The notes beneath the pieces were generated by a model, which had not been told where the DNA came from, did no database searches, and saw only the letters and a list, made by a program, of their open reading frames with translations. Positions 8,251-54,175 of a stretch of DNA of 64,000 bases are shown piece after piece. Each line of letters starts with the position of its first letter. The first letter of the stretch is position 1. The DNA is from Psammoneis japonica (Eukaryota). A program made the translations under genes and the position numbers. Where the stretch lies: contig QPGO01000104.1 of the NCBI GenBank assembly GCA_008632985.1, positions 186,001 through 250,000 of the forward strand. Direction: 5' to 3'.

Positions 8251-8351
8251 GTTTCTGTGCATGACTCAAGCACACCCATTGTCCGAAGGGGGGCACAACT
8301 CCACACCCAGATGCAACACTGAGTCCCAGCGACATCTGCTGACCAGCAGAG

Positions 8352-8748
8352 GACGCGCTCCAGCTCTGGGTGGGACCTTGCACCACTGCACTGTGACATC
8401 AACAGTTTTTTGGATCGCGTCGCATGTCACCCACGCACATTTCTACGTGTTGTGTTCTCCGAAATTGTTTCATGCTCCCTGTTTTGCGAAGCCAAAGGCT
8501 TTCCATTTTCAACATTTGTGAGAATGAAAATGTGCTGGGTGTTTTCTTTGATGTCTGAAGAACACACCCGGGCAAACTGTTGATGATGCACTGCAAGCAT
8601 GGAGGAGGAGATGCTTTCGTAAAATTGCCTCTTTTTCTGTTGGCGATCATTCACATTTTCATTGCAGCAAAAATTCACTGCAGAGCTTGCACGCAGAATT
8701 CTGCAGGCCCAATGTCACACGGAGTCCCGCCTGGGACTGGAACCCATC
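8352..8748 (+). mobile_element. MITE family A, copy 1 (~397 bp)
   Basis: TIRs GACGCGCTCCAGCTCTGGGTGGGA / TCCCGCCTGGGACTGGAACCCATC with 4-bp TSD AGAG. Near-identical to 48769-49162 and 57477-57874. Confidence 0.9.
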
Positions 8749-8829
8749 AGAGCCACAGAAAAAGCAAAATGATGCTGCGCATCTGAGAGGAAATGAAGCA
8801 CAGAAGCTTTGGAAAACAACAACAAACAA

Positions 8830-13713: not shown

Positions 13714-14444
13714 GGTCGAGAACCCTATCTCTTTCACGAGGTAAGTCGAGAGAAGTGTGGCGTCTGGATTGGATCTTTGTGAATTTTTGGCGGTCACTTA
13801 TCGCGATACTAGAATTGACTGGTGCAATACCAGAAGATTCACGTGGACTCTACAGCAGTTTGGAATTTTGGCAGTCTATTCGAAATATATAGCCCACAGG
13901 ATTTAGGGGACGGGGTTCTGGAAGATCGCCAGCTCTCACTTTCCGTTGGCTACTCCGAGTGCTCGTGACTCACGTGTGTTTGTCGGAGTGTTCAAATTCA
14001 GGAGACATTTTGGATTTATTGTGGTCATAACACATCTCTCGCAGCGCTTTATTGTAGTCTTGGCTTAGTATAGTAATCCCAACTACCGGTACCTACTTTA
14101 GTTTAGTTCTCCGATTGAGCTGTACCTTGTTGGACCGACATAGCTGCTGAGCGTTAACATCCAATTTCGATGCGGAAGAAGCTAGCTTAAATTTCGCTTG
14201 CGATCTATCTCTGGGTCTTCCCCGGTCATCTGATTTGAAGGTCGTGGTCAGCGGTGTCTTTAAAATGTTTCTGTTACCAGAGTCTAGTAGCTATCTTATT
14301 TGGCAGCAACTCACAAGCTACAAAGATTTAGACAACTTTGAATGGTCCTGCACTAAAAAACCTTATATCCCTCTATTCAATCCATTCTAATTCACTCTCG
14401 CAGCGTAGCTGTTTGCAAGAAAACGTATCTTTCTTTTTCATTCC

Positions 14445-15782
14445 TTAAACAATGAAAACAGAAGCAACGATAAGAGCAACGGTGGCCGTTGCAACCGAAA
14501 GAAGCAAGTTGTTCGACGCAGCACTTGGAGGGGTGGTTGGTGAACCAGTCGCTGGCGGATCCGTAGCCCCAGGAGCTGGGGTGCTTGGTGGATCCGTAGT
14601 CCCCGGAGAAGGCGTACTTGGCGGATCTGTTGCAGGTGTCGTGGTTGGTGGATCAGATGTCTCCTCTGCAAAACTAGAAGAGGTAATGGTGACAATCGAT
14701 TGAAGCGTGAGCTTGGCCAAGGTTTCGTTAAAGGCTGTAGAGGCGGAAAAAGCAACAATGGCAGGACCAGGAGCTTCTCCCTTTCTGGCAATTAGGTTGG
14801 TGTAGTATCTCGGAGATTCGTTCGAGTCCTGGCAAACAAGATTCGATGCCCCGGCATCAGCGAGAAACGTTGAAAAGTCATAGTTCTCGGAGTACTCCCA
14901 ACACTCAAAATAGTTTGTGCCGGTTTGAGCTGTGCAGTTGCGATCAAACGCAGCACGAATCGGAGAGGGATTGGTGCTATCGCTGCACCTGTACGAAGCA
15001 CCAGTTTCTGTCTGTACAGTTCCCGATAGATCTGTGCAAGATAGCTCAGTCATGCCGTCATTGCCAGTAAAGCCGGTACGACCATACTCATACCACTCGC
15101 TGCACGAGTAGAAGTGGCACTCGCGGTCTGTGCCGCAAAATGCAAAGGGCGACTCACAATCATTATCGGTGGCGCAGTCACCGGGTGCTGGAGCCGTTGT
15201 GGGTGCAGACTGTGCAGTGAGTGTCGTGTCAATGCAGCTCAACGGAAGATTGGGATCGAAATCAAAGTTCTGATTTCCAGTTGTGAAACGGCTCGTAGAG
15301 TTCGCAACACGGGTCCTGTAGGCGTAGTAGAGGTTGCCCTGGTCGCACGAAGCAACAGTCTTCAATGCCAACGCTGTTTCGATAAAAGCCGTAAAGTCTG
15401 TGTCGTTGGCGTATGCCAGACACTCAAATAGTTGGGTTCCGGCAAGCGTTTGGGTCGTTGCTGTACAAATCTCATTAAAGTCCTCCCTCGCCAATGGAGG
15501 AGCGTTTGCCCTACACCGAAAGTCAACACCGACTGTAGACGCGTGGGGTCCAGCATAAGGCCCACACGAGACCTCCGTTGCCCCGTCATATCCAGTCAAG
15601 TCGACAGGCCCATACTTGTAAAAGTCGGGGCATGAGAATCGACGGCAGGTCTTGTCTGTGCCACAAAACTCGAGACCATTTCTACAATCTATTGTCTGGG
15701 TGCAGGAAGATCCAACTTCAGACTTACACTGGTCGACCAGAAGAGAGAGCAACAAAGAGACGGCAACTGGAAACAACTTCAT
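14445..15782 (-). CDS. Tandem paralog of 12022-13713 with a shorter TDPP-repeat stalk
   Basis: Same signal peptide and two Cys-rich repeats, shared RFTTGNQNF and RAAFDRNCTA, and a hydrophobic C-terminus. Confidence 0.85.
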   Translation of the reverse strand: MKLFPVAVSLLLSLLVDQCKSEVGSSCTQTIDCRNGLEFCGTDKTCRRFSCPDFYKYGPVDLTGYDGATEVSCGPYAGPHASTVGVDFRCRANAPPLAREDFNEICTATTQTLAGTQLFECLAYANDTDFTAFIETALALKTVASCDQGNLYYAYRTRVANSTSRFTTGNQNFDFDPNLPLSCIDTTLTAQSAPTTAPAPGDCATDNDCESPFAFCGTDRECHFYSCSEWYEYGRTGFTGNDGMTELSCTDLSGTVQTETGASYRCSDSTNPSPIRAAFDRNCTAQTGTNYFECWEYSENYDFSTFLADAGASNLVCQDSNESPRYYTNLIARKGEAPGPAIVAFSASTAFNETLAKLTLQSIVTITSSSFAEETSDPPTTTPATDPPSTPSPGTTDPPSTPAPGATDPPATGSPTTPPSAASNNLLLSVATATVALIVASVFIV

Positions 15783-16215
15783 GGTGATTCGCTTCTCGTA
15801 AAAAGTGGACGTGGTAAAATTGGATCTTGCGAAATCTGTTCATGTTCGCATCAATTGACAAATGAGCCGATTTGTGGGCGGGATGCATGGTCGGGAGTCG
15901 AGTCGTCACATGCCAACCACATACTGTATCATAGTTTGTCTCGTAGAAGCTACATAATTTTGAAAATTTCGATATCGCCACGCTCTCATTATAAATATTA
16001 TATGTATCTGAATACTTATTTCATTCCCACTCCACGAAATTGCAGCCGCAACCCTTTGACCCTACATAAACACTCAACTTAGAGTAGTAGAGCTACTAGC
16101 TAGAGGACTACTCTAGTAGAGGGCACTACTAGAGTAGATAGAGAACGCAGGGGACAGATACTTGAAAAAAGTAGCATTGTTTCTAGCTCTAAAATAGAAG
16201 AGTATATAAAAAATA

Positions 16216-19200
16216 TTAGAGGTGTCCTGCCATTGCACGCATGGCAGCTTTGTTATTTGTAGCAACCCCTTGAGACGAGGATACAAAGCTTGATGACGAT
16301 GGCGCTGATCCATCCGTCGAAGGTAGAGAGTTACCACCGTCCGGTCCCATTAGATGGGTTGAATAATAATCACTGATACGTTGCTCCATGTAAATTCGAT
16401 CTCGTAATCTTCGTGGTGAATGTCGTTCGTCGGGAAACACGAGCAAATCGTACTCCTTGCCAGAGGCAATCAGTCGATTAATGAGACGTGCCGTATGTCG
16501 AAAGTGGACATTCTCGTCAATCAAACCATGGACAATCATTAATTTTCCCGTCATGTTTGGGACGTGTTCAAAAATTGCAGCCTCTCGGTAGCCGCTAGCA
16601 TTCTCCGCGGGTAAACCCATGTATCGTTCCGTGTAGTGCGTATCATAACCGTCCCATGATGTTACAGGTGCACCTGCGACAGCGACATGGAAGACATCCG
16701 GAGCTCGACAAAGGCACATGGCTGCCAAGTATCCTCCATAGGACCAACCATAAATACCAACGCGAGTAGGATCGGCGATACCCCGCATGGTCAAATGACG
16801 CACGGCTGTAACCTGATCCAAGACCTCAAGTCGTCCAAGGCGTTTGCGAATCGCGCTTTCAAACGACAATCCACGTCTAGCGGATCCTCGATTGTCGCAC
16901 TTGACGACAGCAAACCCCAAGCTCCGAAGCAACTGTGCACGCATGTCTGCACATTGTCCCCACGATCGGTTAACACGTTGAACATGGGGCCCACCATAGA
17001 CGGCACACACCAAAGGGTACGGACCAGGACCATGCACTGAAGCGTCAGGCTTGTACACTGCGGCATGCAGAGTCTCGGTCCCATCGGACGTTGGAAAGGA
17101 CATTAACTCTGGCGCAGGCAGGTTTGAAATCCACTCTTGAGCAACAGGATCGGGAGGAAGAAATGAAGATTCCCTGTCTTCCGAATCATGAAGCACACAC
17201 AAGAATTTTGCAACTGATGTGTCACGTTCCGAGTTACTTTCCAACGAATCCACATGTGTCCGCGGAAATTTGCGTCCCCGCGCTACCTGAGCAAAAGGAC
17301 CCGTCTTGGGTAAAACATACAGCTTGACAGATGTGGGTCTGTCCAGGTCGGAACTCGTGTCGACAAATATTCGACAATCACTGTCCATTGCGATTGAATG
17401 CATTCCAGGCTCGGTGGTCAGACGAACCGGATCAGGCACCCCGTCCACATCCATACTGGAGGAAGTGCTCTTGCGAACGGATGACTGTTTTCCGCTCAAA
17501 GCACTCATGACGTGCTTGAGACCCCGCCGTACCCCACCGTGGTGGCCATTCTGTTTGCTGTCATCCAGCATTGTGTCCCCAGAGTCAGAGCTGTCGCGGT
17601 CGTCTCGTCCATTCTCGTCACTGCCTCCTTGGTTGGTAATGGGCAAGGCAAACAAGTGTCGCTCCAATGGCGAACCAAATGTCCCGGTAACGTACACGGC
17701 ATCATTTTCTAAATCCACTCCCGCTACATCCTCAACAATCCAATCTCCAGCAGACACGGTTCGAATCATGATGGCTTTGTCCCCATTATATCCTGGAGCA
17801 AATGTGTACAGGTACAAGTGTGAATACCCGGTTCGCTCCGAAGCAAACAAAAAGGAAAACGATCCGTGCGGCAATGGATTGGGAAGCGAGTGATCTACCA
17901 CAGGAAAGCATTCGTCGGGATGAATGGCCCTTGGTAAAACCCGCATCATGTGATTCAAATTAATCCAGACATCACTTCGTTCGGTCAAGAGCGTTCTTGT
18001 GTTTCCAGTCGACAAGTCAATACGCACAACCACCAAGGTTGACTGTGTTCGATTCTGCCATTGAGCGCAAGCTGATCCATCCGGTAACCACAAGACCCGC
18101 GCCAAGTATTCTTGCGCCTCTCGTGGTGGGTCGAGCCATAGACACTTTTCCCAGTTTCGTTTTGCAGCCTTATCCGACTCGGAAAGCTCCTCGTCCTGAT
18201 CCATCATTATTTCGTTGCTGTCACTCTCCAACAGATAATCCAATACATCTTCATCCTGCGCATCCGAGCTCATGCCATGATGCGTCTCATTCAAAACTGT
18301 ACTCCTGTCCACCTTGACATAGGCTAGTTGCACTTTACAATTGTCTTGACCTGCAAAGGGGTATCGATGATCTTCGTAGGGCGCATCGCGGGTAGACCCA
18401 TCACGGCCTTCATGCGTAATGCGATAGGGCGGAATTCCAGATTCATCCACCCGTGTAAATAGAATGCCAGATGAATCCGGATTCCACCAATAGCCACGAT
18501 AGCGATCCATTTCTTCTTGCGCCACAAAATCCGCCAGTCCATGCGTGATGCAATCCTCCTCGCACGCTCCAAAGGTCAAACGAACCGGTTTTGATAATGC
18601 TGAATCATCGCCATTGTTTCCAACCCCCAGTACATAAATGTCTCCCGCAACAACAAAGGCAACCATACTTCCATCGGGTGACAATTGTGGATCAATCGCA
18701 CTCGCATCACGGCCCACAACGGGTCCCACGGTTTTCGTCGTGGCAGAACCAAACAGTGTTTCCTGAAGCGTACTTTTATCATAAATCATTCGCAACGCAT
18801 CTTTTGCTTTGGAAGCAACTCCATCCTGAACATAGACATTGCCACGAATCGGTACCAACACTCGCAACTCGTCCTTGTACAGAGTCCAACTGAATTGCGT
18901 CGCACCCGAATGCAATCGCTGTCGTTCTCGACGCAACTTTTCTTCTAATGAAACCGATCCCTGATCCTTGACCATTGTATTGGGTAGTTTTAATAGAGGA
19001 GATATTAACGATTGGTGGACTGCACATCCCGGATGCAGTTGATTTAAATCCAACACAAACAATTGACGTTCGGCAGACGAACGGGAAGAAGACGAAGCAG
19101 CATTAGTACGGCGCAGAGACGAGGATAGAAACGCCAAATACCGTTCTTCTGCCAATTCAGGTGAAAAACATAATGACGAGGGACCTGACAAGCCTAATCG

Positions 19201-19599: not shown

Positions 19600-22500
19600 A
19601 GATAGACAAACAGAAAATGCCAAACTGCTCTGTCAGCTGTCCGTCAACTTGCGCGGGATTTCATGTTGCCCCAGCGCAGCCCTAGCACAGTCATCTCACA
19701 ATCAGACATTTTCACCAATCAACTGCAACTGGCAGGGCTTGTGCCATGGTCCGTGAAAAGTTCTGTTGTGGCTGGGAGAGCAGAAGAGAGTGCATCAAAA
19801 ACAGGGCAAAAAACCAGCCGAGCATCGCGCACAGGAGGTGCTGGCACGCAGCACAAGTGCGCCCACTCCTTGCTGATGCAGCAAAGCCACACACTGGCCT
19901 CTGGCACTGGACAGCACAGTGCTCCTGCTCACACACACCTGTGTGGCACATCACATTTTGGCACAATGCAGACATGACCAGATGCCGTCATGCAAAATCT
20001 CAAGCCAGTGTGTGAGCAGTCCACTGGTGTTGCCAGAGGGACAGCTCACAGACACTCGCTGTCAAATGACAGCACTTGGCACAACATCTTGTGCAGCACT
20101 CAGAGCAAGGTAAAAGAGTTGTTCATGCAGCAACTCTGGAGAGAGAGCATGGTGACAAAAGACAAAGCTGCAGCCCGATGAGGTCATGATCACTCTTTTG
20201 AAGTTGACCATGGGTCCAGAGAGGCAACAAAATGACACACCACAGTCAAATGGTGTTCCCTGCAAAACAAAGCTGTGTCTGTTGGAAATTTGGCTGCTCT
20301 TGCTTGCTGTTTTGCTCTTGGGCTCACACAAAGTGCAGCAAAAAAAGCAGGCGGCACTGCGCTGGCTTTGCAGCAAACCGCTGCTTTCTCTTGCACTCTT
20401 CACAACAACTTGAATCCTTGCCCACATCTCTCTGGGATGAGCCACCCTCTTTTGAATGTGCGCGCTCATGACCTGGGTGCTGCAGAAGCCCAGCAACTGG
20501 CACCCAGCTCTGTCACACTTCCAGCTGCTCCCAAGGCATTTTTTGGGTTTTTTGAGCAACAAAGCTCTTTCCACTTTGTGGATGTCAACACAAGGTTTGT
20601 GCAGCTCCTGAGACGGGGCTCTGGCATCTGTGAGTGTGCTTGTCTTGATCTGCACAGCAAGTTTGACTTTTGTGCATTGTCAAGTTGGTTGAAATGTTGT
20701 CTCTCCTTTTCTCTCCAAGTCTGACCTTTGCCTCTTGTTTGGGTTTGGAGCTGGGTGGCAGACTTCCCCCCGCAAATCATGTCAGGGAAGCAGCGACATG
20801 TCAAGGAAGCAGTGACATGTCCCAGTGACAGGCGACATGCCAAACAACAATTTCATTGATTCATGGGCCAACCTCAGTCAAGTGCAATTGTCTTAAACTT
20901 TGCCACCAAGTGCAGCCAAATGTCTTGTTCATGCTCCAAGAAACATTTTCTCAATGAGAAGCAAGCTCCCAAAAAGTGATGCCCACATGTTCCAGTGCCA
21001 GGTGACATGCCAAACAAAATTTTCATTGATTCATGGGCCAACCCCACCCAATCAAGTGCAATTGCCTCAAACTTTGCCATCAAATGCAGCCAAATGTCTT
21101 GTTCATGCTCCAAGAAACATTTTCTCAATGAGAGGCAAACTCCCAAAAAGTGATGCCAACACAATGATGAACATGACCACACACACAGTGGTGGCTGCTT
21201 TCCACCTTGTGGCAACAAAAACAATGCCGTCAGCAGCACCATCACATTTTGCTTGGTCTGCAGGTGCCATTGTTCTTTTCATCAGTGAAATGACTTTGGA
21301 CTTGCAGAGCTTTCAGCATCTTGAAAGTGATGGAGTTTTTGCACCCTCCTCTTGGGCCATTTTGACCCCATGCTCTGAAAGTGTTCAATGTGAAAATGAT
21401 GACATTGAGTCCACTTCACATCCAAGTCAGCTCATGCAGTCATTTCGGTGTCACAAAGATTCATTTCAGTGACCTTGTGCACTGACTTTTGGGTGATGCA
21501 TCAAGACCTGCAAAATCCTTTGAACACAACAGCTCCATTTTTGCATGAAATGATCCACAATTCAACATTTCCTTCACAACACATGTTGCATTGGCTTCAT
21601 GCCTTTAACCAGCACTGCTTCCACAGTTGTGAAGTCAAAGAAAAATTTCAAGAACAACCACACACTGCCATGGCAACTTCTTGTGCGAAAAACACATGTG
21701 TCTGGACTGGGCACGGCTTCACTTGTTTTCCATGCTGTGAACAATGGTGTGCAGCCAGGCTCTCAGATGTGCCACAGCCAGCTTGCAAGCACAGAGATTT
21801 GAGCCTCAGCTGAGATCTGCAGTTTTGTCACACAGAAGCTGCCCAGCTGCAGCCATGTTGTCAGATGACAACTCTGCTTGTCTCTGTGCCATGCCTGCTC
21901 CATCCCCAACATGGCATGCAAGATCAACTCAAAAGCAAGTTTTCTTTCCACTGTCATGATGGCAAAGCCTGGTGAATTTGCAGCTGGCTGCTTGCAGGTG
22001 TCATTTGCTTCTTCTGCCACAACTTTGGCAGCAGACATTTGCTGAACAAGGCACCACATGGTCACCTGGTTTCCTGCCAATGCACACACCCCTTGATGGT
22101 GTGTTCAGCAGCACTTCATGGAGTGGTGCAAGCAAACACAAGAGCAGCAGATGCAAGCTCAGCAGGCAGCAGCAAGCTGAGGTCAAGCCACAGGTGCTGA
22201 TGCTTGCCAGAGCACCTCTGAACAACTGCACCATTGTCGTCATGACCACCCAACTTGGCAACAACAACTCCATCTCTCTTGCCGCACTGCACCCTGGGCT
22301 TTCCTTTTCTTGGTCTTTTTCATGCAAAGAGATGAGCTTCACTTGCTTTCATTGTTGCTGCCCATTTTTGCAGCATTTCTGTCTTTTTTGCTCTGTTGAC
22401 AACTGCCCTTCTTGCCCTGAAACGAGCCGACAACAACGTGCATGCCACATTGCTGCTGAGTGTGTGTCAGATCTGCACAGAGCAGAGCACTGGCACTGGG

Positions 22501-22860
22501 TGCCTCCTCCCACAGTGACATGTGCTGCTGCATTTGCAAGGAATCCTGGTTGGGGCATGCCAGAGGCTTGGGGCATTGTGTCAAGTTGGCTGTTGTTGCA
22601 CTGGGCTCCATTCTCAGACAGTGTCATGCCTCTTGGAGAGCACTGTCCTTGACATGGCTGTTTTGCTGCTGGCACACAGAGTGACCCTCCTTGGTGACTC
22701 CAGTCCATTGTGCATCAACAACACCTGCAGGGGTGAGTGCGCTGGTCCCTGGCTTCCCAATGAGCCCCCTCGGGTTGCACAGCTCCACATTGTTTGCTTG
22801 CTGCGGCAAACTCGAAGGCACAATTTTTTTGCATGTTGTGTGCGTTTTTTTCTCGGAAAA
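19600..22860. other. TpA/CpG-depleted degenerate repeat block 2 (unclassified debris left of the YR element)
   Basis: TA almost absent, TG/CA excess and no credible ORF. Confidence 0.75.
20834..21158. repeat. Tandem duplication of ~170 bp
   Basis: GACATGCCAAACAA...CCCAAAAAGTGATGCC occurs at ~20834 and ~21004. Confidence 0.85.
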
Positions 22861-23428
22861 TGCAGCTGTCGCCACTTTTCTTGTTTGTCCTCAGCAGAGT
22901 GATTCAAGCTAGGAGACAAGACACAACAGGACCAAATCCAACAGGCAGGAGTGGAGATGGCTTTGCTGGCACTGTGGGAAGCCCTGCTCCCAAACCCAAG
23001 CTGGACGGTGGGCCAGAGGGCAGGAGAGATGGGAGCAATTGACTGTCTAGAGCCCGGCTTGCTGTTGTTGTTCTCAAAAGAATGAAAACAATGAAAGCCA
23101 GAGAAGAGTCATTGTAACTCCCGTGCAACGTGCGGCACTTTCAATGGGAAGGAATTGGGAATCCCTCTTTGTGGATCTCACGAGGACAGCGGCTGTTGCC
23201 ACTTTTCTTGTTTGTCCTTGGCAGAGTGATTCAAGCCAGGAGACAAGACACAATGGGACCAAATCCAATGGGTGGGAGTGGAGATGGCTTTGCTGGCACT
23301 GCAGGAAGCCCTGCTCCCAAACCTGAGCTGGACAGCAGGCTGCCAGCACCACCCACAACAGCACAGCAATGCAGTGAAGGGCCTGTGACTTGGGCGGGAG
23401 GGTGGGCCACGTCTGGCGGGTGTGGCGC

Positions 23429-24600
23429 TCATGGAGGGTTGACGGGGACATCGGCGTTCGGAAGGAGAACGAAGTTGCCACCTTGGAGCATCCGTTGAGA
23501 GAAATGGCGCACAATCGGTTCCGCCTGAAGGTGGAGGTGCCAAAGCATTTCGTCAGAGTGCCAGCAACCCAAGAGACATGATGCAATGTCCGTGTCCACT
23601 CGGGCACACAGCAACCCCATGGTGCCTGCAGCTCGAAGACTGCGGGCGGAGACATTGCCAGGTGTGAAACCGAGGTTCTGAGGGCCGAGGGCCAGGACAG
23701 TGGTGCGGAGGATGGCAGTGATGTCGGCAGGAGTGACAAGGTGCCAGGCACCATTGTGAAAACAAACAGACAACGGAGTGTCAGGGTGCACTCCATGGGA
23801 GTGGAGATGCAGAGCTCGGCGTGCTGCAGCCTTGACAGGGCAAAGTTGAGGATGCCCAGAGAGGCCTTGACCTGTGACTTCACCCACCATTTTTCTGGGT
23901 GGTGAAATCAAGCGTGGCAAAGGTGGCGGCATTGAGACAGGCAGCAGGGCACGTGAATAAATCCAAGTGTGCTTGACCAGTGCTCAGCCGCAAGTCGGCC
24001 AGATGGAACGGGGTGGAGTCTGACAGTGTTGCAGTGCATTCGCCGGGTCACATCAAACAAAAGAATGCAAGTGCGATCATGTCGGCAATGGCCATGGTGC
24101 CGGGGTGGTGACCAGTGGCCACCAATGCAAGGATCCAATGTAGGACAGTGATCAGGATCAGTTTTACTTGGTCTGGCAGAGGATCCTCTTTCTTGCAGTG
24201 ACGGATTTGTCGGGTGAGACGGAAATCCATTTGGCCTTGGGGTGTTTTGCGTGAGTCTGGGGCCCCCATTGCAGAAAACGTTTGTCCAACCGACCGCACG
24301 GCATCTTCAGCAGTGCATGCTTGGATGGGATGGCCACGTGGGGTGATTTGGCCAGTTCGATGTCAGTGCATGAAGACTTGGAGGAAGAGAACTGGGTCAT
24401 CAATGGCTTGGAGCAATGGGTCGATGGCCATTTCGGCACAAAATTCAGTCCATTTTGTCCAATGGGTGTCACAGGCGGTGGCGCGCGAAGGGGCAATGGA
24501 GTTGGCGACTGCGAATTGTGCAGCGCCGAGATCACGTGGGAATGCAGCTCTCGTGGCGGCGTCCACAAGCACCAAGATTTGGTCTGTGGACAAAAAGCGT
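23429..24600 (-). pseudogene. Tyrosine recombinase of the Ngaro element (frameshifted, catalytic Tyr lost)
   Basis: VSARSLRAAGTMGLLCARVDTD...LLGCWHSDEMLWHLHLQA (cf. HSLR/RSLR...GRWxSDxxxxY). Confidence 0.85.
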
Positions 24601-24666
24601 TAAAATGTTGCAAAAAGGCAGCAGTGGTTGGTGATCAGAGGCGGGAGGCATCGTCAGCGGCAGTGT

Positions 24667-26520
24667 TCAAAGGCCCCGGCAGGTGATCATGCAATGCAAT
24701 GTGGCAGTGATGACGTTGGTGACAGGCGGCACAGCGCAGGAGCTTGGCTTGGGGCTTGGCAGTGGTGGACGAGCCCTCACGTTTCCAGCACATTGTGCCA
24801 AACTGTCAGTGCGCTGCAGGTTGGTGCGTTCACGCAGATCAAAACAATCTGTGGTGGCATGGGTGTGGAGCATGCTGCCTGCTAATTCGAGGTCAGTGTT
24901 GGTGATGGAACCATTGGGGTTGTCGAAGGTTGCCAAATCCCTGGTGACATCGTGGGGAAAGGGCATGCGCCACACCACGGGGCCTGAATCCTGCTGGTGC
25001 CGGGGCCGACCTTGGGGTGAATGCTTTGCCCGGGCCGCCCGGGGGACAGCAGCAGGAGTTGGGATGATGACACCGCCAGCACCATGGCCAGCGGCGTTGT
25101 GGCAGCCGTGCACGGCAAAGTCCAACTGTGCAAGCTCTTGGATGCGCACTGGGTGATCTTCGATGGTTGTGGTGAGATCGCGAAAATCATCCAAGACACT
25201 GTGCACAGTGGGAGTCAAACGGACACGGGAGTCAGGTGGGGTGTGACGGAGAGTGTCTTGTGGCTAAGAGAAAAGGCCTCGGGAGCCGGGTGTGGCAAGC
25301 AAGAGCGAACGGAGTTCTCCAAGCAACTCATGACAGTCGGTGGTGGTGGCATGTTGACGGGTTCGAGGGAAGTCCTGGGCAAGAGTGTCGTGCAGCAGGC
25401 GATTTAAACGTCGGGTGGTGAGACGCAGTGTCACAGCTTTGGTGTCGATGAGCCATCCGAGGACCTCTTTTTGTGTGGACCAGGAGGCATCACCTTTGCA
25501 AAGCTTTTTGACAGAGATCGGTTCGGTGCGATGTGGTGAGTCGTCTGGGGCCAAGGGATGAAAGATGTTGTCAATTGCCACCATCAGTGTGCAATGCACG
25601 TTCAAACGGGCAGCGCGTGAGCCCTGCGCGGCCCCGATGCAGTCATCAACATGTGTCTCCACACAAGCAAGGCGACGAGGACGTCAATGTCCAAGGTGTG
25701 GGTCCGGGTCATTGGGCATTGGGACGGCGATGGTGTCGGGTGGCGGCGGCAGTGTTGGTGGCAACGGCGGGCAATGACTCATGGCAACATGCTCCAAACG
25801 ATGAGGTGGTGCCTGGCAGTTGCACAGGAGGAGTTGGTTGGCAATGTCAGCACCCGTTTCGGTGGAGGTGCTAAAAGCAGGTGGCAAATTTTTCCATCCC
25901 ATTGGCAACTTGGCAGGGATGGCGATGAGTGGTGGCTCACCTGGCAGACTGGGGAAGGCAACAGCTGGGACCTGTGCACGGTCCGGTGCCAACGTCATGT
26001 GGCAGAATCTGTTGGACATGTCGATTTTCATCAGATGGACGTGTCCTTTGTTGGGGTTGGCGAGGAGGAAGCATCGCAGGAGCCGGTCAAGAGCTCTCCT
26101 GAACTGCATGGATTCCACTGGCGTGTTGGGCTGCGCAGCATCGTTGGTTCCGTAGAAAGTGCAGTCTGCGATGGGCCGGGGACATCGTCCATGCTGGGGG
26201 ACTGCTCCAATGGGACTGATGTGGAGTCCTGGGGTGTTCTTCACGTCCTTGCAGGGGACTACAACCCAAAAGCCCTTGTCGACACAGTCGGCCATGTCCT
26301 CACACAAAAACTCAACACACTCGCAGGCGGACTTGTGCGGCCCCCTTTGGATGCTGGCGTCTGGTTTGGCGGCACTCCACGGTGGGTCGGCAACGGTGAC
26401 TGGAATGCCTCGGCGTTTACAACCCTGGAGCATGCAACGGGCAGGATGGTCGTGTGCCCCATGCATGGGGCCCAAGTCACCTCGACCACGATGGTGTTGC
26501 AACAAGCAGCTGAGGCCTCT
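24667..26520 (-). pseudogene. Reverse transcriptase / RNase H of the Ngaro element
   Basis: ISPIGAVPQHGRCPRPIADCT, HLMKIDMSNRFCH, LPMGWKNLPPAF, THVDDCIG (YVDD), KEVLGWLIDT and ITNTDLELAG. Confidence 0.88.
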
Positions 26521-29500
26521 GCGACGCCAATGTGACATGCTCACCCAATTCATCAGTGTCAACTGATTCGGCAATCGCTTGCCCACGTTCCGTGGTGCGG
26601 CATTGCCGCTTCCCAAATCTCTCCGTCTGCGGGGTGATGGATGCTGCTCACTGGCAGTGAAAGAAGGCTCTCGGTCCCGAGTCCCCGAGCTGGGGCCGTT
26701 GCCAATGACCCATTTGGTTGTCCCCAATGCTCCGTGGCCCAAGTGAAAAGTGCATCCTGCTCCGCTTGACTGTGGCCGCCACGATGATCGGCACGGGCAT
26801 TGCAGCTGGAGTTGCGCTGTCCCTTTGGGTGGAACGGGAGGCACCGAGGATTCCCACTGGCGTCCATCGGCAGGGCAATGTTGGCCGCAGCACACCTGTC
26901 CTTGACTGCACGGGAGCGGACCCCCGGCCTGGCGCGAATCTCATCGAATCACGTGTCGCAGTGCTCATTGCGAATCAACATGTTGGCACCTGGGCGTGCC
27001 GGTGGTGGGGGCGCGGCAGGTTGCTGTGGTGCAGCAAACGGTTGGGGTGTCGCCGGTGGAGCTTGGTGTGGCAAGACGGCTGTGGGCAAGTCACACCTCC
27101 AATGCATGGCCCCTTTGGCGGCCAAGCGAACAATGGGTTGTCCTTCAAAGGGCAAAGGTTGGTCAGCACGTGCCTGGTCAGTGAACCACTGCCCGATCTC
27201 TGTCTGGGCCCAACATTGGAGGTCTGCCAGCAAAGTGGGATAGCGCACCATTTGTCATGCCAGCTCGTTGGCACAAACATCCATCGCGCGGCGTTGTTGT
27301 CCCAGCCACGTCGTGACCGCATGCTGGGTTCCTAGACTGGTGGCGAGGATGACACGGTGACCGTCACAGGAGTGTTGGGCTCCTTGCATTGCAGTGGTGA
27401 CCCTGGCTTTGTCTGGTGCCTCCAGGATCTGAGTGTCTGCTGCACTGGGCACATTGTCTCCACAATGGATCTGGCGACAGAGCGCATTGCGGCACGCAAT
27501 TTGCCATTCTTGCTCGGGCATCGTGAGACTGAAGATGAAGGGATCAATCCCTTGGGTGAGGTCATCTTGATTGTGTCTGGCAAAATTCTGTTGGAGCAAC
27601 TTGGACACCAAATTTGCCAATGCGGGCACGTTGAAATGCACCCCAAGGGCCTCACGTTGTTCGTTGACACTGCCTTGGACTGAGGCCACCCGTCCGGGCT
27701 TGGGCGCAGATGCCAAGTCGGCCCACATCTGCGGCAATTGTGTCTCTTGGTAGATCTGACACAAGCACATGATGACGAGGGTGGCTTGCACACCAAAAGC
27801 CTCCCATGGGGTTTTGCCACGTGCACTGGCTTGTGAGCGTGCCTGCAGCGACCAACCTCTGTTGACGCTGCTCTGCCGTGAGGTTGTCAATGGCAGCAAT
27901 CACGGGCTGAAAATGCTGCAATGTCTGCCCTTGTTGCCCCACATGATTGGGCAAATCCCGATTGACCTTTCTCTCAAAATGCCGAATGAGGGATTCATTC
28001 GGCGGCCAGGGCAGAGTGGGCCAGTCCCTGATCACAGCCAAGGCCACATGATCCTGCTGAGCAGCTGCACATGCCACCTTCAGAAAATCCAACAAGGGGC
28101 GGCACTCGTTGACTTGATTTGCCGCGGTCGCCGCACCATGGATTCGTGTGAAGGCCTGTTTGGGTGTCAGCGCAGTCGAGAGCAGTGGATTGACACAACT
28201 GAAAGGCACGAACATGCAATTGCGTGTCCGCACCTCTGCTGCATTGGTGGTCTGATCGGCAACATGGGGGTGAAACCCAAGTGGGTGTGCCGTGATGGCG
28301 GCCAACATCGCGGCGGCGTCTAACACGTGTGTGCCATTGGGTGCAAGATTCGTCATCTCCACCGGGAACTCGGCCAGTTGATGCTGGTTGACCGCTGGAT
28401 CACCTGCAATGCCGCAGGTGCACCCGTCCCAGGGTTGCGCTTGTCCCACTGCCGTCGTGGGGCACGTGGATGGCCTGTGCGAGATTTGGACACATCCGGG
28501 TTTGTTGGCTTGGCCTGGCAAACGACAGTGCATGGCAATGGCCATTGGCATGTCGTGCTCTGATGCGGCGGCAATCCTGGTGAACAAAGCTTGCGGGTTG
28601 CACCTTGACAGTCCATTGATGCCGGCTGCGAAGTCCACCATGGCTTCTTGGTGCTGTCCCTGGTGCAGGTCATGGTTGGCTGCTCCGCAGCAGTCGGCGC
28701 ACATCCGCACTGCCTGCGGTTGCAGCAGCACTGGCACCACATTGGGTCCCTGTGTGGCCGGCACCTGCTCAGGAGCTTGTGGAGGTGCTGGTTGTTGTTG
28801 CCCAATGGGCAGTTGCTGTGCCAGTTGATTCATGGGGTTTGCTGTCCTTGCGGCTTCGGCTGTGGCTGCTGTGGCCCTGGAGCAGGCTGCCCTGGCTGTT
28901 GGCCTGCTGGTGGCACCGGATGCATGGGCGGTGGGGTGGCACGTTCTGATGAGCATTTGTGTTTCCTGGGTCCGGTGGCGCGCCGGTGTTCAACATGATG
29001 TTTCGAATTGGTTGCACTCCTGCTTGTGCGAAGCAAAATTGAAAAGAAGGCAACAACAGCGGCGGAGGTCTCCTGCGTCGAACTCAACAGCGATCAACCA
29101 TCTAGAGCCCGGCTTGCTGTTGTTGTTCTCGAAAGAATGAAAACAACGAAAGCCGGAGAAGAGACATTCTAACTCCCGTGCAATGCACGGCACTTTCAAC
29201 AGGAAGGAATTGGGAATCCCTCTTTGCGGATCTCACGAGGACAGCGACCTAAAAAGTAAACCAGGCCTGCGGGGGAGCATTGACCACTTGTCTTTCTTTG
29301 TGGGTGTGGGTGTGTGCCGTTGCATGCTGCATTGCCTGTACGTACGTAGGGCCCTACCGCCGGGGCCGGTGTCGGCATTGTGGCGGCTGAGTGGCGTGGC
29401 CACCGCACCGGTGACGCGGATGACCGTTATATTTGATGTCTCATGCCATTTTTGGGGCTGTAGCGAGGTGCACGGACACTCTTTTTTTTCCAATTTATCG

Positions 29501-30127
29501 CCATAATAGCGCATCGCACAAACTCACTTATTGTTCGATATGCTTTCCCCAATATGACTTTTTCGTGTAGAATTCACTATAAATTATCTTTGTATATAAC
29601 TGAATACATTTTTGAACATGCCACGCCGGCAATCCCAATTTTTCAGAACTTTCGAGCTCTCCTGAAAAACCGTGCCACGACCTCTCATGTCCTCAATGAT
29701 CATTCTACGAATCCGAAGAATTCATCTGTACTAAACAACCCATCCCGTTCCAAATTCCCAGGGACACACTTTCAAATTCAGACGGACCCCCCCCGACTGC
29801 CCGACTGCCGGACCGACACGAAAAAGTCTGCAATCACCAACCACTGAGTGGTCAATGAAAACCCCGGATGTGTGTCCAGTCTTCAAGTCCGATGAGCCGA
29901 TGAGAATTCGAAGCCACAGCATGCAGAAGCAGTACTACAGTAGAGAGTGTAGAGGCCGTGTTCGCATTGTGTATTTCTCAAAAGATACTGTACGCTGTCT
30001 TCTAAACGTGACGGTAATTGAAGAAACTTTTTGAAAGCAAGTCAATGTTCTTTGTGCCATATGCTTGCCATTTTCAGCGTCTCACTTCTCTGGATCTTAT
30101 TTGTCATATTCTCACACGCAGCAAACC

Positions 30128-32077: not shown

Positions 32078-32299
32078 GGTGTTCGTTATCTTATTCCGTA
32101 CCCGCTGGACATAACATTTTCTCCCGGTGTTTCTGCACTCTAATTGTTACTCCCATAATGTATGTTATTTACAAAACTTAAAACGGCAAATTTCTTTTTA
32201 TGAACCTGTTCTTCAATTTGAATGCCAAAACGTTGATGTTCCCTTGATGTTCCTCTTTGTCAGTGCACCACATTTGGGCCCAACGACATTTAAGGCACT

Positions 32300-34700
32300 C
32301 TTGAAGCGATGCACACAGCCCGCAAATGACAACCCCGGTTCATGATCCAAAATCGTGCCTTGAGTGGGACCAAAGACACCAGAAATTGTTGCCAAAAGTC
32401 ACTTTTCTGAGGTCCATTTGGCATCATCTGTGGGCATTCTTTCCAGACTGTTGCAATGTGAAGCTGGCAAAATTGCGCTGCATCATCTGCAAATTTCAGT
32501 TGACTTGTGTCTTCACGTTAACTTTGCTGGTGTGAAAAGTTGCAGTTGTTGTGCTTTTGTGCGGAGATGTGGGAGGAGTTGCAAAGAAGGAAATTGTGGT
32601 CACAACCGCACCTGTGTCAAAGGAGAGCACAGTCAATGGCGACAATGACGGGGGTTCCAAGTGCACTGCTGTGCAAAAAAGCAAGCAAAAAGCCACATTT
32701 CATGTTGTGCACAGTGCTGACACAAGATCTGTTCAGCTGCAAAGGTGGGTGCATGATGCTCACTCAGATCCTGGCTCTCAGAGGTGCAAGGAATGGGGCT
32801 GAGGGCAGTGTGCCAGTGTCTGGGAAGAGCAGAGAAGGTGGTCTGAGAGCACCACTGTGTGGACCAATGCAGCACTTCAGGGTGTGCATTTTTGGAGCAG
32901 TGTGCGCTGCAAATGGCCAAATCAAAAGGCTGTGCTTTTTGACAAAATTTGGTTGCAGCAAGTCTCTCTTGCACTTCCTTTGAGAAACCACAAGAACACC
33001 AGCACTTGCAACTGTGTTTGCAAGCACTTGTCACCCCTTCAGGTTGCATGACAAGAGTGGATTAACTGGCAAGCAACCAGTGTTTTGCTTTTGCAAACAC
33101 TGTCTTTGCACTTGAACCTCATTTGCCACACTCAGACAAACAAAATCAGATGCACCACCTGTTTCTCTGTGCACGGCAAAGTGGGATCACAGCAACACAT
33201 AAAATCCACCTCTTCCTGTTGCTTGAAGACTTTGTTTGCACATTTGGATGGAGTTGCCCCAGCCAGCAGCCCCACAGCCAGACATGACCACAAATCCTGA
33301 CAGGACTTGGTGCACAATGTGGTCTTTTTTCATTTGCAAAGAGCTCTGTTTCTGTGGGAGAGCCAAACAGCACTGGCAACAAAAGCAGGGCCAGGGGCAA
33401 AAGCCACCAGTGCCGTGCATCATGGCTTTGTAAAAGAAGGGGAGACTTGGCTGGCTCTGTGCTCAAGCTGAGGCAGGGCACTGGAAAGCAAGGGAGGGGG
33501 GCTTGGCTAAAGTGAGTGCACAGCAGATGTAAAAAGGCACAGCATTGAAGCATTTCTCTGCTTTGGGGCACCTGCACTGGGCAGAGCATGCTTTCATCTC
33601 AGCAGCAACATGCTGTGCATGGAGAGCCCCAGAGAAAGAGTGGCTGGCAAAGCACATGCAACACACACAGGGGCTTGCATGGTCAAGAGCGGCGGTGACA
33701 AAAATCTGTGCCATCAACACACTGGAGCATGGCAGCACAGCATCATCTCAAGTTTCATGCATCACACAGGCTCCAGTGTGAACATTGGGCACCAGTGCCA
33801 GTGAGAGGAGGCAAGTGTGAGCACCCCCATGCAAATGCATCCTGGTGCTCAGAGTTCAGAGTGCACTCATGGGTGACATGCAGTGCTGCATCAATGGGTT
33901 GCACTGGACAGAAGATGGCTCCCTGCACTGTGAAAATGCTGAAGAGAGAGACAGAGATGTGGATGAAAGAAGCCAGGCTTTGTTTTCTCATTTTGTGGTT
34001 GGCACAAGAAAGTCAAAAGAGGCTTTTTTTGGGTGTCCATCTGCTGCCCAATGGTTGTTGCACTGACATGGCATTGCACTGAAGTGGTTGTCACTTTCTG
34101 CTCTTTGGACAAGTGCTGCTTCATCGTTGCACAAAATGAGTTGTCTGCAAGCTGCAGCACAACAGCGTCTTTAAACACCATGCTGTGACCTGTGACATTG
34201 GATCAGCTTTGCCTCCCCTCATGTGATGAAATGCTCCAATGTCAAGAGGCTTTCTTCACACAAAATGTGTTGTCTGCAAGCTGCTGCAGCACAAGGGTGT
34301 CTTTAAACAACATGATGGCTGCTGTGACATTGGCGCCAGTTTTGCTTCCACTCCTGTGAAAAAATGCTCATTTGTCTGCATGTCAACTCTGCTGCTTTCT
34401 ACGTTGGTGCTTGGCTGGACTTCTTGCTTCTTGCCAAGAACTTCCTCAATTGAAAAGAGCACAACTCAAAGTGACTGAAGGAAAATTGGAACCTGGCTGC
34501 CTCAGGCTTCTTCGTTCATCACATGACAACACAGAGCTCTTGCTCAAAGAAAAACCAATTCCATCCATGATGATTTGACGGTTGCCTGCTTTGCACAGCA
34601 CACACTTGAGATTAAATCATTCCATCCAGCCAACACCAGCCAACACTGGTGTCCTGCCAGACAGGTGAATGCAAGCATGGAGACCTGCGGATTCTTTCTT
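32300..34700. other. TpA/CpG-depleted degenerate block 3
   Basis: TA almost absent except in TTAA/TAAA contexts; Tyr-free spurious ORFs. Confidence 0.8.
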
Positions 34701-34989
34701 TTTAGGAAAAGCATGCGTCAATGTGAGAAATGTGCCCAACAACACCCATGCCGGAGTGCCGCACCGATGCATCTACGCGTTGCCAGCGTTTCAGTGCCGT
34801 CTCCGACGCATGAGCTATCGTTTGTACCTGGCATTCGATAAGTCGGGAAAGAGTCGCCGTTTCACTTGCGTCACGCGTCGCAACGAATTCGATTTCAACA
34901 AACAACAACTATTCTACGGCAAAATCAGAATATTCTGTGGACGACTTCAACAAGGGAGCAAGCTATTTATTGGGGTAGGTTTCACTGCG

Positions 34990-38399: not shown

Positions 38400-41150
38400 T
38401 GGGTGGGGGAGAGGACGCAGAAGATGATGTTGTGTGTCTGCATTTTCGTCTTTTGCGGCACTCATTCTCAAGTTGAGCCAGGCTAGAGTTATTGTTGGTC
38501 CTCATGAGAGGAGACCACCCATGTGATCAGTTTTGCTGAGCAAAGGCATGGCAGAGAGAGTTTGCAGATTGACGTGTGTGAGAGAGAAGCTGCTGCTGGG
38601 CAGCCGCCCCAAGCTCTTGTGCTGGCTCTGTCTTCTTGGGGTCCTGTCATGATGGAGGGTGGGAACTGGGGACAATTGCATCAGAATGATGGCAGAGTGG
38701 TCAAAAGTTTGAGAGACACAATTTCTGAATGGATGGGACCTTTGTCATCGACAACGCTGGACAACTCTCCAGAGACACAGCATTTCTCTCTTGAGCGTGG
38801 CAACACCAGAGCTCTTGCCTCAACCAGCTTGACAAGACAACCCAATTTGGCCTGTCCAACACCCCCCATGCCAAATGCTTCATTTCTTGCAACTTGATTC
38901 AACTGACCTCCACAGAGTGCAGCAGTGGGGGGGCGCGGCTTCTAGAAGTCAGCTCTTGGTGCCAAAGTGCTGCACATGTTGGCTGTTGTTGGATCGCAAG
39001 GCCTTGCAGCAGAGAGTTTGTGTGGCCAGGCACAAGTCATGTGGCAGGGGTCTGCAAAAGCATGACAGCTCAAATTGGTGCTGACACAATCAACAAGATG
39101 TCCAGAGTCAAGTCTCATTGACTCGTCAATCCAGTCACATGACAAACAGCTGTTCCAGATTGTCCCTGGCTCATTTCTTGACTTGCGCCAGTGTGATGCC
39201 TTGTTTTTTTTTTTCATTTTGCACTTGATGGTCTTCTCCCCACACAAAGTTGAAGCTTGTCCCAAGGCCATTGTGTTGCCCATTCCTTTTTCACTCAGCT
39301 CATGTTTTTTGTGCAATCATTGTGGGAGCAGCCCAGCATCATGTGACTTTCCCAGCAGGCACTTTTGACATGATCATCGACACCAAAGAAACTTTTGTTG
39401 GGCAACAAAGCAGAGCCACAAAAGGGATTTTTAAATGACAGTGTTTCAAAAAAAGGCAGAGATGCACAGACAGACACTCCCATGAGGAACAGCTCCAATG
39501 TGTTTGCAGCCACAATCTCAGCTGCCGGCCGAGTGGCCAAGCCATTTTTGCATGGGCAAGGAACAAACCCACCCTTGCCCACTTGATGCAAGGGTGCTCT
39601 TGAAACATGGGAGCTTTTTGACATGCTTGGCTTGTCTCCCACCCATGCACTGTCACACCACATTTACATGTGCATGTGCTGCTGGCAACCAGCATGTTTT
39701 TGTGCTGAGCATGATGTCATGCATGCATCATAAGAGTGCACAACCCTTGTTGTTCACTCTGAGTTGGCAAACAAGACACGTCAACTGACATCTGTTGGCA
39801 CAAAGACTGTGGGTGTTGCACATCCAATGGGATGTTCTGGCACTGTAAAGGCTTCAGAGCAGACAAGGGAAAATGAGATGGGTGCCAAGAGTGTGATGAT
39901 GATCATGCTCTGTGTGTGGCTTGGAAGCTGTGCTGCTGGTGGCAGAGGGGCTGGAGAAAATGCGAGTGGACGTGTTCCAGTCCCAGGTGACGCACAAAAC
40001 GACAATCGGATTTTGAATGTAATTTATGCACATTTTACTGCACATGGTGTTTTAATAAAAATACTTGGACAGATTGAATTTTGTGGGCTTCTAGAGTGTG
40101 AACACTTAAACAGTTTTTTGAGTGGCACTCAAATCCTTGTGGGATGTGTGTCATAAACTTCCTCAGCAGACTCAACACTGATTGTACGTCAGTAGATTTA
40201 TACCGAGATTTCTTTGTAGGTAGAAAACCTAACAAGTGTCATCGTAGAAAGACATGTTTAGGTAACTTCCAAATGCCGGCAACATTTTCGCCGAAAATCA
40301 TCCGTTGTGTTACGAATCTTTTAACGCAATGGAAAACATAGATAGCACAATAACAATGACATTGCAACACTCACACGAGTCTTGTTAGTGTTGCAAAACA
40401 TTTATATTTGTATAAATCTATACTTTTGGTGGTGAAAGTTCGATCGTAAGTTAGGGACCGCGCAAAAATCGCGCAAATGTCGTTTTTGTGCACGATTTGG
40501 TTCACGTGCGGCTGGAACACGTCAGTGGGCTCTTTGGCAAAAGAACATTTCTGGACTCATGTCTCATGCAGGACAACGTGCATTTTTTGGGCCAGTTGCC
40601 CACGATTGCTGCAATTGCCAATGAATGCAGTGACTCTGCTTTTTGCAAGCTGTGCTCAAAAGCAACAAAGTTGCACCACACTGCCCAACTTGCCCCACAA
40701 AACAAGCAATGATGATGTGAGCAGTGCCACATTTCACATGCTGCAGATCCCACCAAAGACAAGTGCCCCATGTCATTGTGCTTCCTCTTGGAGCAATGCA
40801 GCACAAATGCCGCTGATTTGGCTGCGCACATGTGTGCGCAAGTTGTGTGCGTTGGTGCACCACAAAGAAGAGAGAAGCTGTGGGGCAGCAACTGTGGTGA
40901 GGAAGCACAGCTCCTCTTGAGCATCAGTGTGGGTGGGCATCACACACTCTTGTCGATGTAACAACGTTGTTTGCCATGGCTCATTGATGTTGCAGACTGC
41001 TGCTCATTGCTGTGAACCATGCGGTTTTTGGTCACCGTGTTCTTTCAATTGATTGAGAGTGCTGCTGAGTTGAAGAGGAGCCTGTGCAGCAGAGCAGAAA
41101 AGGGAGCAGCAGAAGGAGGCACGGAGGTAGCAGCAGGAGCGGAGGAGAAG
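38400..41150. other. TpA/CpG-depleted degenerate block 4 (possible DDE transposase debris, WIDESM near 39120)
   Basis: Same composition as the other blocks. The DESM motif is only suggestive. Confidence 0.65.
39969..40523. mobile_element. MITE family B (termini related to family A, different interior)
   Basis: GACGTGTTCCAG...CTGGAACACGTC with 4-bp TSD AGTG. Confidence 0.85.
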
Positions 41151-48376: not shown

Positions 48377-48421
48377 TTAATGTCACACAATGCTTGTTTA
48401 ATGGGTCATTGTGTTTTATTT

Positions 48422-54100: not shown

Positions 54101-54175
54101 CAGGAGTGAGGAGTGAACCCCCAAAACGCGACCAGATTCACCCAGCGACGAAGCAACACACAATTTGTGAACAGC

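Follow-up and report, generated by a model that had tools for sequence, protein, structure and literature searches.

Introduction

The closest described system to the one examined here is that of the chlorarachniophyte Bigelowiella natans (Rhizaria), in whose mutation-accumulation lines 230 of 231 changes within giant-virus and virophage regions were A>G or T>C, all of them on the dinucleotide TpA (Mettrop et al., 2026; bioRxiv 10.64898/2026.01.13.699255). The preprint puts the TpA rate at ~1000-fold above background, reports an over-representation of reverse transcriptase and DDE domains among TpA-poor predicted coding sequences (CDS), and proposes an ADAT2-like adenosine deaminase acting on DNA (bioRxiv 10.64898/2026.01.13.699255). 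In this study, we examined a 64,000-nt stretch of the genome of the diatom Psammoneis japonica (assembly GCA_008632985.1, contig QPGO01000104.1, positions 186,001 to 250,000; hereafter the window), in which a degenerate Ngaro-type tyrosine-recombinase retroelement on the minus strand (22862-29246 of the window) and further repeat blocks are almost devoid of TpA (TA). An earlier sequence-only reading of this DNA had proposed that TA was erased from the element while many CpG (CG) survived.

The locus resembles B. natans in the exclusive exchange of TpA for TpG or CpA on both strands, in the confinement of this exchange to particular non-host regions at a rate orders of magnitude above background, and in the long-term depletion of TpA with enrichment of TpG and CpA. 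It differs in host, which is here a diatom (Stramenopila) and there a chlorarachniophyte (Rhizaria), and in extent: the B. natans insert from a nucleocytoplasmic large DNA virus (NCLDV) has a Rho(TpA) of 0.45, whereas transposon remnants, a satellite-bearing block and a pseudogene are here near saturation, with observed/expected ratios (o/e) of 0.03-0.13 over half of the window. Unlike in B. natans, CpG decay accompanies the loss of TA. We further find a preference for TAY (RTA on the opposite strand; Y, pyrimidine; R, purine), while the main text of the B. natans report deals with neither flanking-base context nor diatoms (bioRxiv 10.64898/2026.01.13.699255). The B. natans mutations were observed de novo, whereas those described here are deduced from comparison. 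Full-text literature searches returned no diatom report of a TpA-erasing signature; a SPLASH paper that matched diatom and hypermutation proved unrelated. We consider the locus most likely to be a second, independent occurrence of Bigelowiella-type TpA hypermutation, in a diatom, at saturation and on ordinary repeats.

Two further processes invite comparison. Fungal repeat-induced point mutation (RIP) likewise consists of dinucleotide-specific transitions in repeats or foreign DNA; it is sharply bounded, hits either strand, and inactivates transposon genes with no insertions or deletions. Neither a trigger by duplication nor a restriction to the sexual phase is evident in the DNA examined here. 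Its C>T changes at CpA raise TpA, whereas the element here has a TA o/e of 0.07 and a CA o/e of 1.72, and it makes the stop triplets TAA and TAG, which the process here removes (31 against 250 in an equal length of unique DNA). The CpG decay of methylated transposons turns CG into TG or CA in the same blocks, where nine of 24 conserved Arg columns of the element now read Cys (TGY) or His (CAY) and older blocks have come down to a CG o/e of 0.07-0.2. This decay cannot remove TA, and in the element it is the slower of the two.

Dinucleotide signature

Within the element we counted 20 TA (3.1 per kb, o/e 0.07), against a mean of 287 in 1000 mononucleotide shuffles (sd 12.8, minimum 245). CG remains frequent (331, o/e 0.64), TG and CA are raised (711, o/e 1.57, and 567, o/e 1.72), and the remaining 12 dinucleotides, at o/e 0.87-1.26, are in line with the intact relatives and with 25 kb of unique DNA from the window. 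In that unique DNA the TA o/e is 0.59. The composition described by the sequence-only reading, with TA nearly absent and CG still common, was thus borne out. The loss reaches the stop triplets on both strands: TAA and TAG together occur 31 times, compared with 250 in an equal length of unique DNA, while TGA is unchanged (211 and 192, respectively). Because TAA and TAG have almost gone from both strands, 65 open frames of at least 80 aa are found in the six frames between 21000 and 30000, and gene finders would call long false open reading frames (ORFs) in such TA-free repeats.

As a comparison set we fetched 12 related loci from metagenomes. All 12 have a TA o/e of 0.38-0.84, and the intact ones carry 24-43 TA per kb (o/e 0.49-0.84), among them a locus with three long ORFs of 696, 830 and 403 aa (L001) and another with ORFs of 786, 864 and 388 aa (L003). 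The intact relatives for which the sequence-only reading had called are therefore not TA-free. Tyr is encoded only by TAY, and for this reason a working copy cannot be TA-free.

Contrary to the earlier delimitation of the TA-free state to 22865-29245, it runs on leftward to 19604 and recurs in eight other blocks. By a 500-bp profile with segmentation, nine blocks amounting to 32,187 of the 64,000 bp have a TA o/e of 0.03-0.13, with TG and CA at ~1.35-2.2 and CG anywhere from 0.16 to 0.81. The loss of TA is not specific to the Ngaro element but common to the repeat blocks of the window.

Identity and architecture of the element

The element spans 6,385 bp (22862-29246, minus strand). Read on its coding strand, its direct repeats follow in the order A (29246-29089), internal region, B (23340-23189), A (23191-23034) and B (23013-22862). 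The 5' terminal repeat (29089-29246, 158 nt) is 90% identical to its internal copy at 23034-23191, found by repeat comparison, and the internal repeat at 23189-23340 (152 nt) is 88% identical to the 3' terminal repeat at 22862-23013. The repeat search found no inverted terminal repeats in the element. An A-[gag, pol, tyrosine recombinase]-B-A-B order is that of Ngaro, while inverted repeats belong to DIRS (PMC3783388). The features in common with the described Ngaro/DIRS order (Goodwin and Poulter, summarised in PMC3783388) are a gag-like ORF, a probable reverse transcriptase (RT)/RNase H ORF, an overlapping tyrosine-recombinase ORF and the A-pol-B-A-B arrangement. DIRS/Ngaro-like elements have been recorded in another stramenopile, the brown alga Ectocarpus (PMC3145265), whereas the present host is a diatom. 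We call the copy Ngaro-type on account of its repeat order and coding content.

On the minus strand, the probable RT/RNase H region (24245-26694) is 37-43% identical to ORF2 of the intact relatives, and the tyrosine recombinase region (23435-24593) is 40-54% identical to their ORF3, which overlaps ORF2. In Ngaro-type elements such a recombinase takes the place of a DDE integrase. A frame of 445 aa (27652-28989) occupies the position of the gag-like ORF1; likeness to ORF1 of the relatives is weak, at 31% over ~109 aa in 27513-27839, mostly in another frame. A frame of 418 aa at 25687-26940 (minus strand) drew 26 protein matches, with E down to 5e-83 and ~50% identity, five of which carry a precomputed RVT_1 annotation (PF00078) and one of which stems from a diatom transcriptome. 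The family is seen weakly by domain models. A Pfam scan of nine frames of the element gave nothing above noise, with no match to the RNase H model either. Among three intact pol proteins scanned, RVT_1 reached an E of 1.4e-4, below the cutoff, on L001 ORF2 and matched neither L003 ORF2 nor P0023. Phage_integrase reached 0.008 on the recombinase family, again below the cutoff, and 15 recombinase ORFs used as a profile against PDB sequences found no recombinase. At the level of structure, a model of L001 ORF3 (15-sequence alignment, predicted local distance difference test (pLDDT) score 77.5) matched Cre recombinase with a Foldseek E of 2.3e-7 and a probability of 1.00. Neither the element nor the ORFs of L001 and L003 showed a Dam-like or other methyltransferase match in Pfam, which is weak on this family overall; since ORF2 and ORF3 overlap, there is no room for a Dam-like domain, by the absence of which Ngaro is told apart from DIRS. 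We read 22862-29246 as a defunct member of a multi-copy Ngaro-type retrotransposon family of the diatom. Homology tools will miss such transposons, as the silence of Pfam on this one illustrates.

Two of the relatives are arranged in a way worth recording. The 8958-bp metagenome contig L001 holds a head-to-tail arrangement of a 5766-bp unit, and L003 (6206 bp) has identical 55-nt ends, as expected of a circular or tandem form.

Loss of TA after insertion

The two repeat pairs of the element, 310 aligned nt, differ at 23 sites, of which 21 are exchanges among TG, CA, CG and TA: 11 double swaps between TG and CA, nine sites with CG against TG or CA, and one with TA against CA. The other two are transversions, and there are no other transitions in the 310 nt. 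Background divergence is therefore low (two differences outside the pyrimidine-purine dinucleotide exchanges; ~0.6% pairwise, with a wide interval as it comes from two events), in keeping with the check that the sequence-only reading had put forward. The repeat strings that it had quoted, AACGTGCGG against AATGCACGG and GCTAGG against GCCAGG, are also present. In the split repeat pairs of the intact L001, by comparison, identity is 100%.

About 90% of TA sites are gone from each repeat copy, giving a ratio to the background on the order of 10^2-10^3. Measured against the relatives, ~7-13% of the TA density and ~60-75% of the CG density survive, which corresponds to a per-site loss rate ~4-9 times higher for TA than for CG. 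These figures agree with the earlier claim that TA loss outpaces CpG decay, and they support a loss of TA by mutation after insertion, faster than that of CG. Ages computed from CpG or from total divergence would accordingly be in error if TA sites were not treated separately.

Further copies within this organism point the same way. Contigs of one sequencing run (X1) contributed 849 pieces that align to the stretch at 80% likeness or more, and their variant places comprise 185 A>G, 170 T>C, 200 C>T and 207 G>A, against 139 transversions of all kinds; contigs of a second run (X2) gave no aligned pieces. Among 40 of the 901 X1 variant rows, adjacent doubles of CA and TG are many. Two positions, 25116 and 25329, have TA in most other copies and CA in the element (plus strand). 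Strand-coherent patches, such as a processive single-strand deaminase would leave, were not significant by either of two measures: the direction of swaps within the repeat pairs is lopsided over few sites, and the order of changes along pol makes six runs for nine Cys and five His, compared with ~7.4 expected.

Coding damage

The consequences for the encoded proteins were examined at alignment columns with Tyr in two or more of three or more intact relatives. At none of these 22 columns does the element retain Tyr: nine are now Cys (all TGY) and five His (all CAY), the other eight being three Phe, two Ser, one Ala, one Gln and one Lys. As a control, we asked how often a Tyr of L001 recurs in other intact relatives; three of them keep it at 8 of 21, 8 of 21 and 9 of 17 positions. 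On the coding strand, Tyr>Cys takes an A>G change and Tyr>His a T>C change, so both strands have been affected. Over 521 aligned pol residues the element has one Tyr, 21 Cys and 32 His, compared with 6-13 Tyr, 1-7 Cys and 9-26 His in 14 homologues. Arg was hit less completely. Arg remains at 15 of 24 conserved columns, 14 times as CGN, and has given way to Cys (TGY) at three and to His (CAY) at six. CGN codons thus survive at 14 of 23 conserved columns, against 0 of 22 for Tyr.

Catalytic residues share this fate. The RT active-site motif, YVDD[F/Y] in the relatives, reads HVDDC in the element (CAT GTT GAT GAC TGC, 25639-25653, minus strand). The C-terminal motif of the recombinase (23531-23569, minus strand) reads GCWHSDEMLWHLH where the consensus of the relatives is GRWRSDAMLRYLH; the nucleophile Tyr has become His, and three Arg have become Cys, His and Trp. 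Both changes had been pointed out in the sequence-only reading and were verified. That reading had also noted that the process inactivates Tyr-dependent enzymes, as a genome defence would. We do not take this as a sign that such enzymes are aimed at: both codons for Tyr contain TA, and the loss of catalytic Tyr is for that reason an automatic by-product. Two stops lie in frame in the RT/RNase H region (TGA, 25684-25686; TAG, 25264-25266), where the frame also shifts near 24790-24823, and the recombinase region has a frameshift near 23885. What inactivated the copy are thus amino-acid replacements, Tyr>Cys/His on the one hand and CpG-driven Arg>Cys/His/Trp on the other, together with a few stops and frameshifts.

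Sequence context of the surviving TA

Ninety-seven TA survive in the TA-poor blocks, 51 of them in YTAR (CTAG, TTAA, CTAA), 44 in mixed contexts and two in RTAY (counted as ATAT, ATAC and GTAC). Baseline frequencies of YTAR and RTAY are 17% and 26% in intact relatives and 19% and 28% in unique DNA. Had the survivors arisen anew from CA or TG, 22% YTAR, 52% mixed and 26% RTAY would be expected, which does not fit what we observe (chi-square p ~1e-14). Because survivors are mostly YTAR and almost never RTAY, we conclude that the process prefers TAY, or RTA on the other strand. Protection by a CTA context was not significant; it is the purine 3' of A that matters.

TA-poor blocks beyond the element

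The edges of the blocks are abrupt: over a few tens of bp, TA that were hundreds of bp apart come to be spaced at ~20-25 bp. TA sites lie 4 and 11 bp past the last base of the element. Two TA-poor blocks at 38485-40019 and 40448-41127 (together 38485-41127) flank an island of normal TA content. This island (40019-40448) is AT-rich, measures 430 bp, holds 33 TA and lies between TA-free blocks that end in termini like those of miniature inverted-repeat transposable elements (MITEs). It shows a sharp stop of the process at element edges.

A MITE-like family of ~400 bp with ~20-bp terminal inverted repeats is represented at 8351-8748, 48769-49162, 57476-57874 and, in reverse, 49842-50232; similar termini also lie near 39975-39995 and 40490-40520. 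Exchanges among CA, TG, CG and TA make up most of the differences between copies. Three close copies of the four vary at 18 CA/TG sites; CG stands in one or more of them at 17 sites, and at four sites one copy has TA where the others have TG or CA. The blocks at 2470-9658 and 9846-11625 (within 2470-11625) contain one of these copies, a 26-bp satellite and a ferrochelatase pseudogene. Fragments of the latter at 3927-4540 (minus strand) match PF00762 in two frames (E 4e-11 and 3e-10), the only Pfam match among 72 frames of the other TA-poor blocks. Compared with solved ferrochelatases, GDPY has become GDPC and DIEY has become DIEH; given these Tyr>Cys and Tyr>His changes, a cellular pseudogene went through the same process. 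The T-rich satellite (8831-9584 and 9936-10698) is TA-free with a CG o/e of ~1, and its units vary at CG, CA and TG; it may lack TA by composition alone.

The block adjoining the element (19604-22861) is TA-free (o/e ~0.03) and CG-poor (o/e 0.07-0.2), and is either older or more heavily methylated. At 32200-34702 the TA o/e is 0.07 and the CG o/e 0.16, and at 55979-58524, which includes one MITE-like copy, they are 0.05 and 0.44. Within 46900-54236, the blocks at 47687-48864 and 49027-54236 are preceded by a partly depleted segment, 46900-47686, with 15 TA in 787 bp, near-normal CG and no RTAY. It may represent a repeat at an intermediate stage of depletion.

Mechanism and alternative explanations

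We think it probable that a repeat-confined process working at the level of DNA, and turning TpA into TpG or CpA, acted on the dead Ngaro copy and on neighbouring repeats after insertion. The comparisons above establish its signature, its action on both strands, its timing after insertion, its sharp limits and its sequence context. Such a process would convert TpA to TpG or CpA by A:T>G:C transitions on either strand within repeats, preferably where the A is followed by a pyrimidine, and would run several-fold faster than the CpG>TpG/CpA decay of the same DNA and roughly 10^2-10^3 times faster than background substitution. Each Tyr would become Cys or His, the Tyr of the YVDD motif and the recombinase nucleophile being lost along the way, and the vanishing of TAA and TAG from both strands would leave long spurious open frames behind. 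The process is presumably enzymatic, and its simplest agent would be a polynucleotide adenosine deaminase that works on DNA, the kind of enzyme suggested for B. natans. The tRNA-editing family of adenosine deaminases supplies the simplest candidate; its members act on an A that follows the invariant U33, and in bacteria the enzyme reads U-A-C. Silent chromatin or repeat recognition may direct the process to its targets, and it may serve genome defence; this role and an action soon after insertion, both suggested by the sequence-only reading, are inferences. More tentatively, and with somewhat less than even confidence, we suggest that diatoms may hold a RIP-like defence of opposite chemistry that shares its origin with the Bigelowiella process and is old and widespread in Stramenopila, Alveolata and Rhizaria (SAR). 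In such a defence, an enzyme guided to repeats or heterochromatin would act on genomic DNA at T-A-pyrimidine, by deaminating adenine or by modifying thymine on the opposite strand, until no TpA is left.

The main rival is a mutagenic base modification at TpA in silenced repeats, either 5-hydroxymethyluracil (5hmU) made by a TET/JBP-type enzyme or N6-methyladenine (6mA), which would mispair or be mis-repaired to give T>C or A>G without a dedicated deaminase. In dinoflagellates, 5hmU is enriched at TpA and TpC. A mark of this kind would agree with the strand-symmetric signature (nine Tyr>Cys, five Tyr>His), the more so as TAY is RTA on the opposite strand and the target could be T; sharp limits at repeat edges fit a chromatin-directed mark, and CpG decay in the same blocks suggests that the repeats were probably modified already. 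What argues the other way is that TC (o/e 0.97) and AT (o/e 1.02) are not depleted in the element, so that a TpC-modifying activity left no trace, and that a loss of ~90% of sites would demand a very mutagenic mark. Deamination and modification of T (or A) at TpA are inseparable by these data, and we regard the modification route as rather unlikely. Another possible source is error-prone patch repair: T:G mismatches, frequent where 5-methylcytosine (5mC) deaminates in methylated repeats, would bring in mismatch repair and a Pol-eta-like polymerase that changes A:T pairs at WA motifs (W, A or T). The second phase of vertebrate somatic hypermutation provides the analogy, and Pol-eta errors are rich in A>G at WA. 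Such patch repair would explain why TA and CG are lost from the same blocks, whereas the motif does not fit, AA being undepleted (o/e 1.26 in the element, 1.04-1.15 in relatives and unique DNA), and the satellite array and the Ngaro element lost TA and kept most CG, so that TA loss does not depend on prior CpG deamination. In B. natans, moreover, the reported changes fell only on TpA (bioRxiv 10.64898/2026.01.13.699255). We hold this explanation to be very improbable.

Little probability, again, attaches to an artefact in which modified bases (6mA at TpA, 5mC at CpG) were miscalled by a long-read basecaller, even though miscalls on opposite strands would produce TG or CA at random per site, and would touch TA and CG together and only in modified, that is repeat, DNA. 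The X1 contigs, short-read-like with a word depth of ~50-70, match the assembly exactly (records of 424 and 355 nt, no differences), with the proviso that the assembly may itself derive from X1, a run of unrecorded platform. Two frameshifts and a TAG stop are further found in the element, besides many other substitutions, and a graded series from partly to fully depleted sequence with context dependence is unlike the usual consensus errors. Hyperediting of the element's RNA by an ADAR-like A-to-I activity, fixed by reverse transcription, has in its favour that the element is a retrotransposon and that ADAR-type enzymes favour a 5' U (bioRxiv 10.64898/2026.01.13.699255). Editing of the sense RNA would give Tyr>Cys only, yet five of 14 changed Tyr columns are Tyr>His; the repeat copies within a single insertion differ, which places the changes after integration; and purines 3' of A are disfavoured. 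Nor would it reach the MITE-like family, the satellite-bearing block or the ferrochelatase pseudogene, all of which bear the same signature. An inherited shortage of TA in the family, or one due to selection on its composition with no host process, has nothing but the low TA count itself in its favour. Tyr is not encodable without TA; intact relatives show a normal Tyr content and 24-43 TA per kb; unrelated repeats and a cellular pseudogene are in the same state; and it is at just these sites that copies differ. Because repeats other than the element and a pseudogene are affected, we exclude RNA editing fixed by reverse transcription, which we consider exceedingly improbable, and inherited composition, which is scarcely conceivable at all.

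Several points weigh against a TpA-directed process on DNA or narrow the ground on which it stands. The ratio of rates to background leans on two transversions and has a wide interval. Most of the TG/CA swaps are not polarised singly, as a CG ancestor yields the same pair, and polarised changes are confined to the Tyr and Arg columns and to sites with surviving TA. This applies to the proposal of the sequence-only reading that the pair AACGTGCGG/AATGCACGG implies AACGTACGG: the TG/CA difference is real, while the TA ancestry is ambiguous. With a CG loss of ~0.4 per copy, about one discordant CG-derived site is expected per six one-copy sites, of which nine were observed; as so few are expected, most of the 11 swaps should derive from TA. 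Two TA sites, CTAG (23048/29103) and TAAC (23115/29170), are kept in both copies of one repeat pair, a double survival that is unexpected at ~90% loss per copy unless context protects. The relatives that serve as outgroup are only 37-54% identical in protein, and the evidence comes from one 64-kb window, the contigs of one run and comparative inference. A segment of ~290 bp at 29258-29546 is high-copy, with a summed X1 depth of ~8,000-18,000 as opposed to ~50-70 for single-copy DNA and variants with an internal deletion, and yet keeps 12 TA, four of which are RTAY; repetition alone is therefore insufficient, or this family is very young, too short or exempt. It matches no known RNA gene, a search of the whole window with Rfam at gathering thresholds and a tRNA scan having returned 0 and 0 hits. 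Finally, tandem paralogues at 12022-13797 and 14445-15839 (both minus strand) share ~72% DNA identity over ~890 bp and have normal TA and CG.

If a TpA-directed process of this kind is confirmed genome-wide, diatoms would be the second eukaryotic lineage with TpA-targeted hypermutation, one only distantly related to the other, and the first in which it has run to completion on ordinary transposons, making it a candidate general defence of SAR algae rather than the curiosity of a single species. A RIP-like defence at TpA would reshape repeat composition, lead gene prediction astray, and erase Tyr codons along with all stop codons but one. Saturation, sharp edges and the TAY/RTA context provide handles for finding the enzyme and its targeting signal, and an adenine editor of DNA found in nature would attract broad interest.

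Neighbouring genes

The tandem paralogues at 12022-13797 and 14445-15839 encode secreted Cys-rich proteins with Ser/Thr/Pro-rich tails. Host genes point to a raphid pennate diatom: near the repeats lies an 894-aa dipeptidyl-peptidase frame, whose best named relatives come from the raphid pennate genera Pseudo-nitzschia, Nitzschia, Cylindrotheca, Fistulifera and Amphora, at 54-60% identity.

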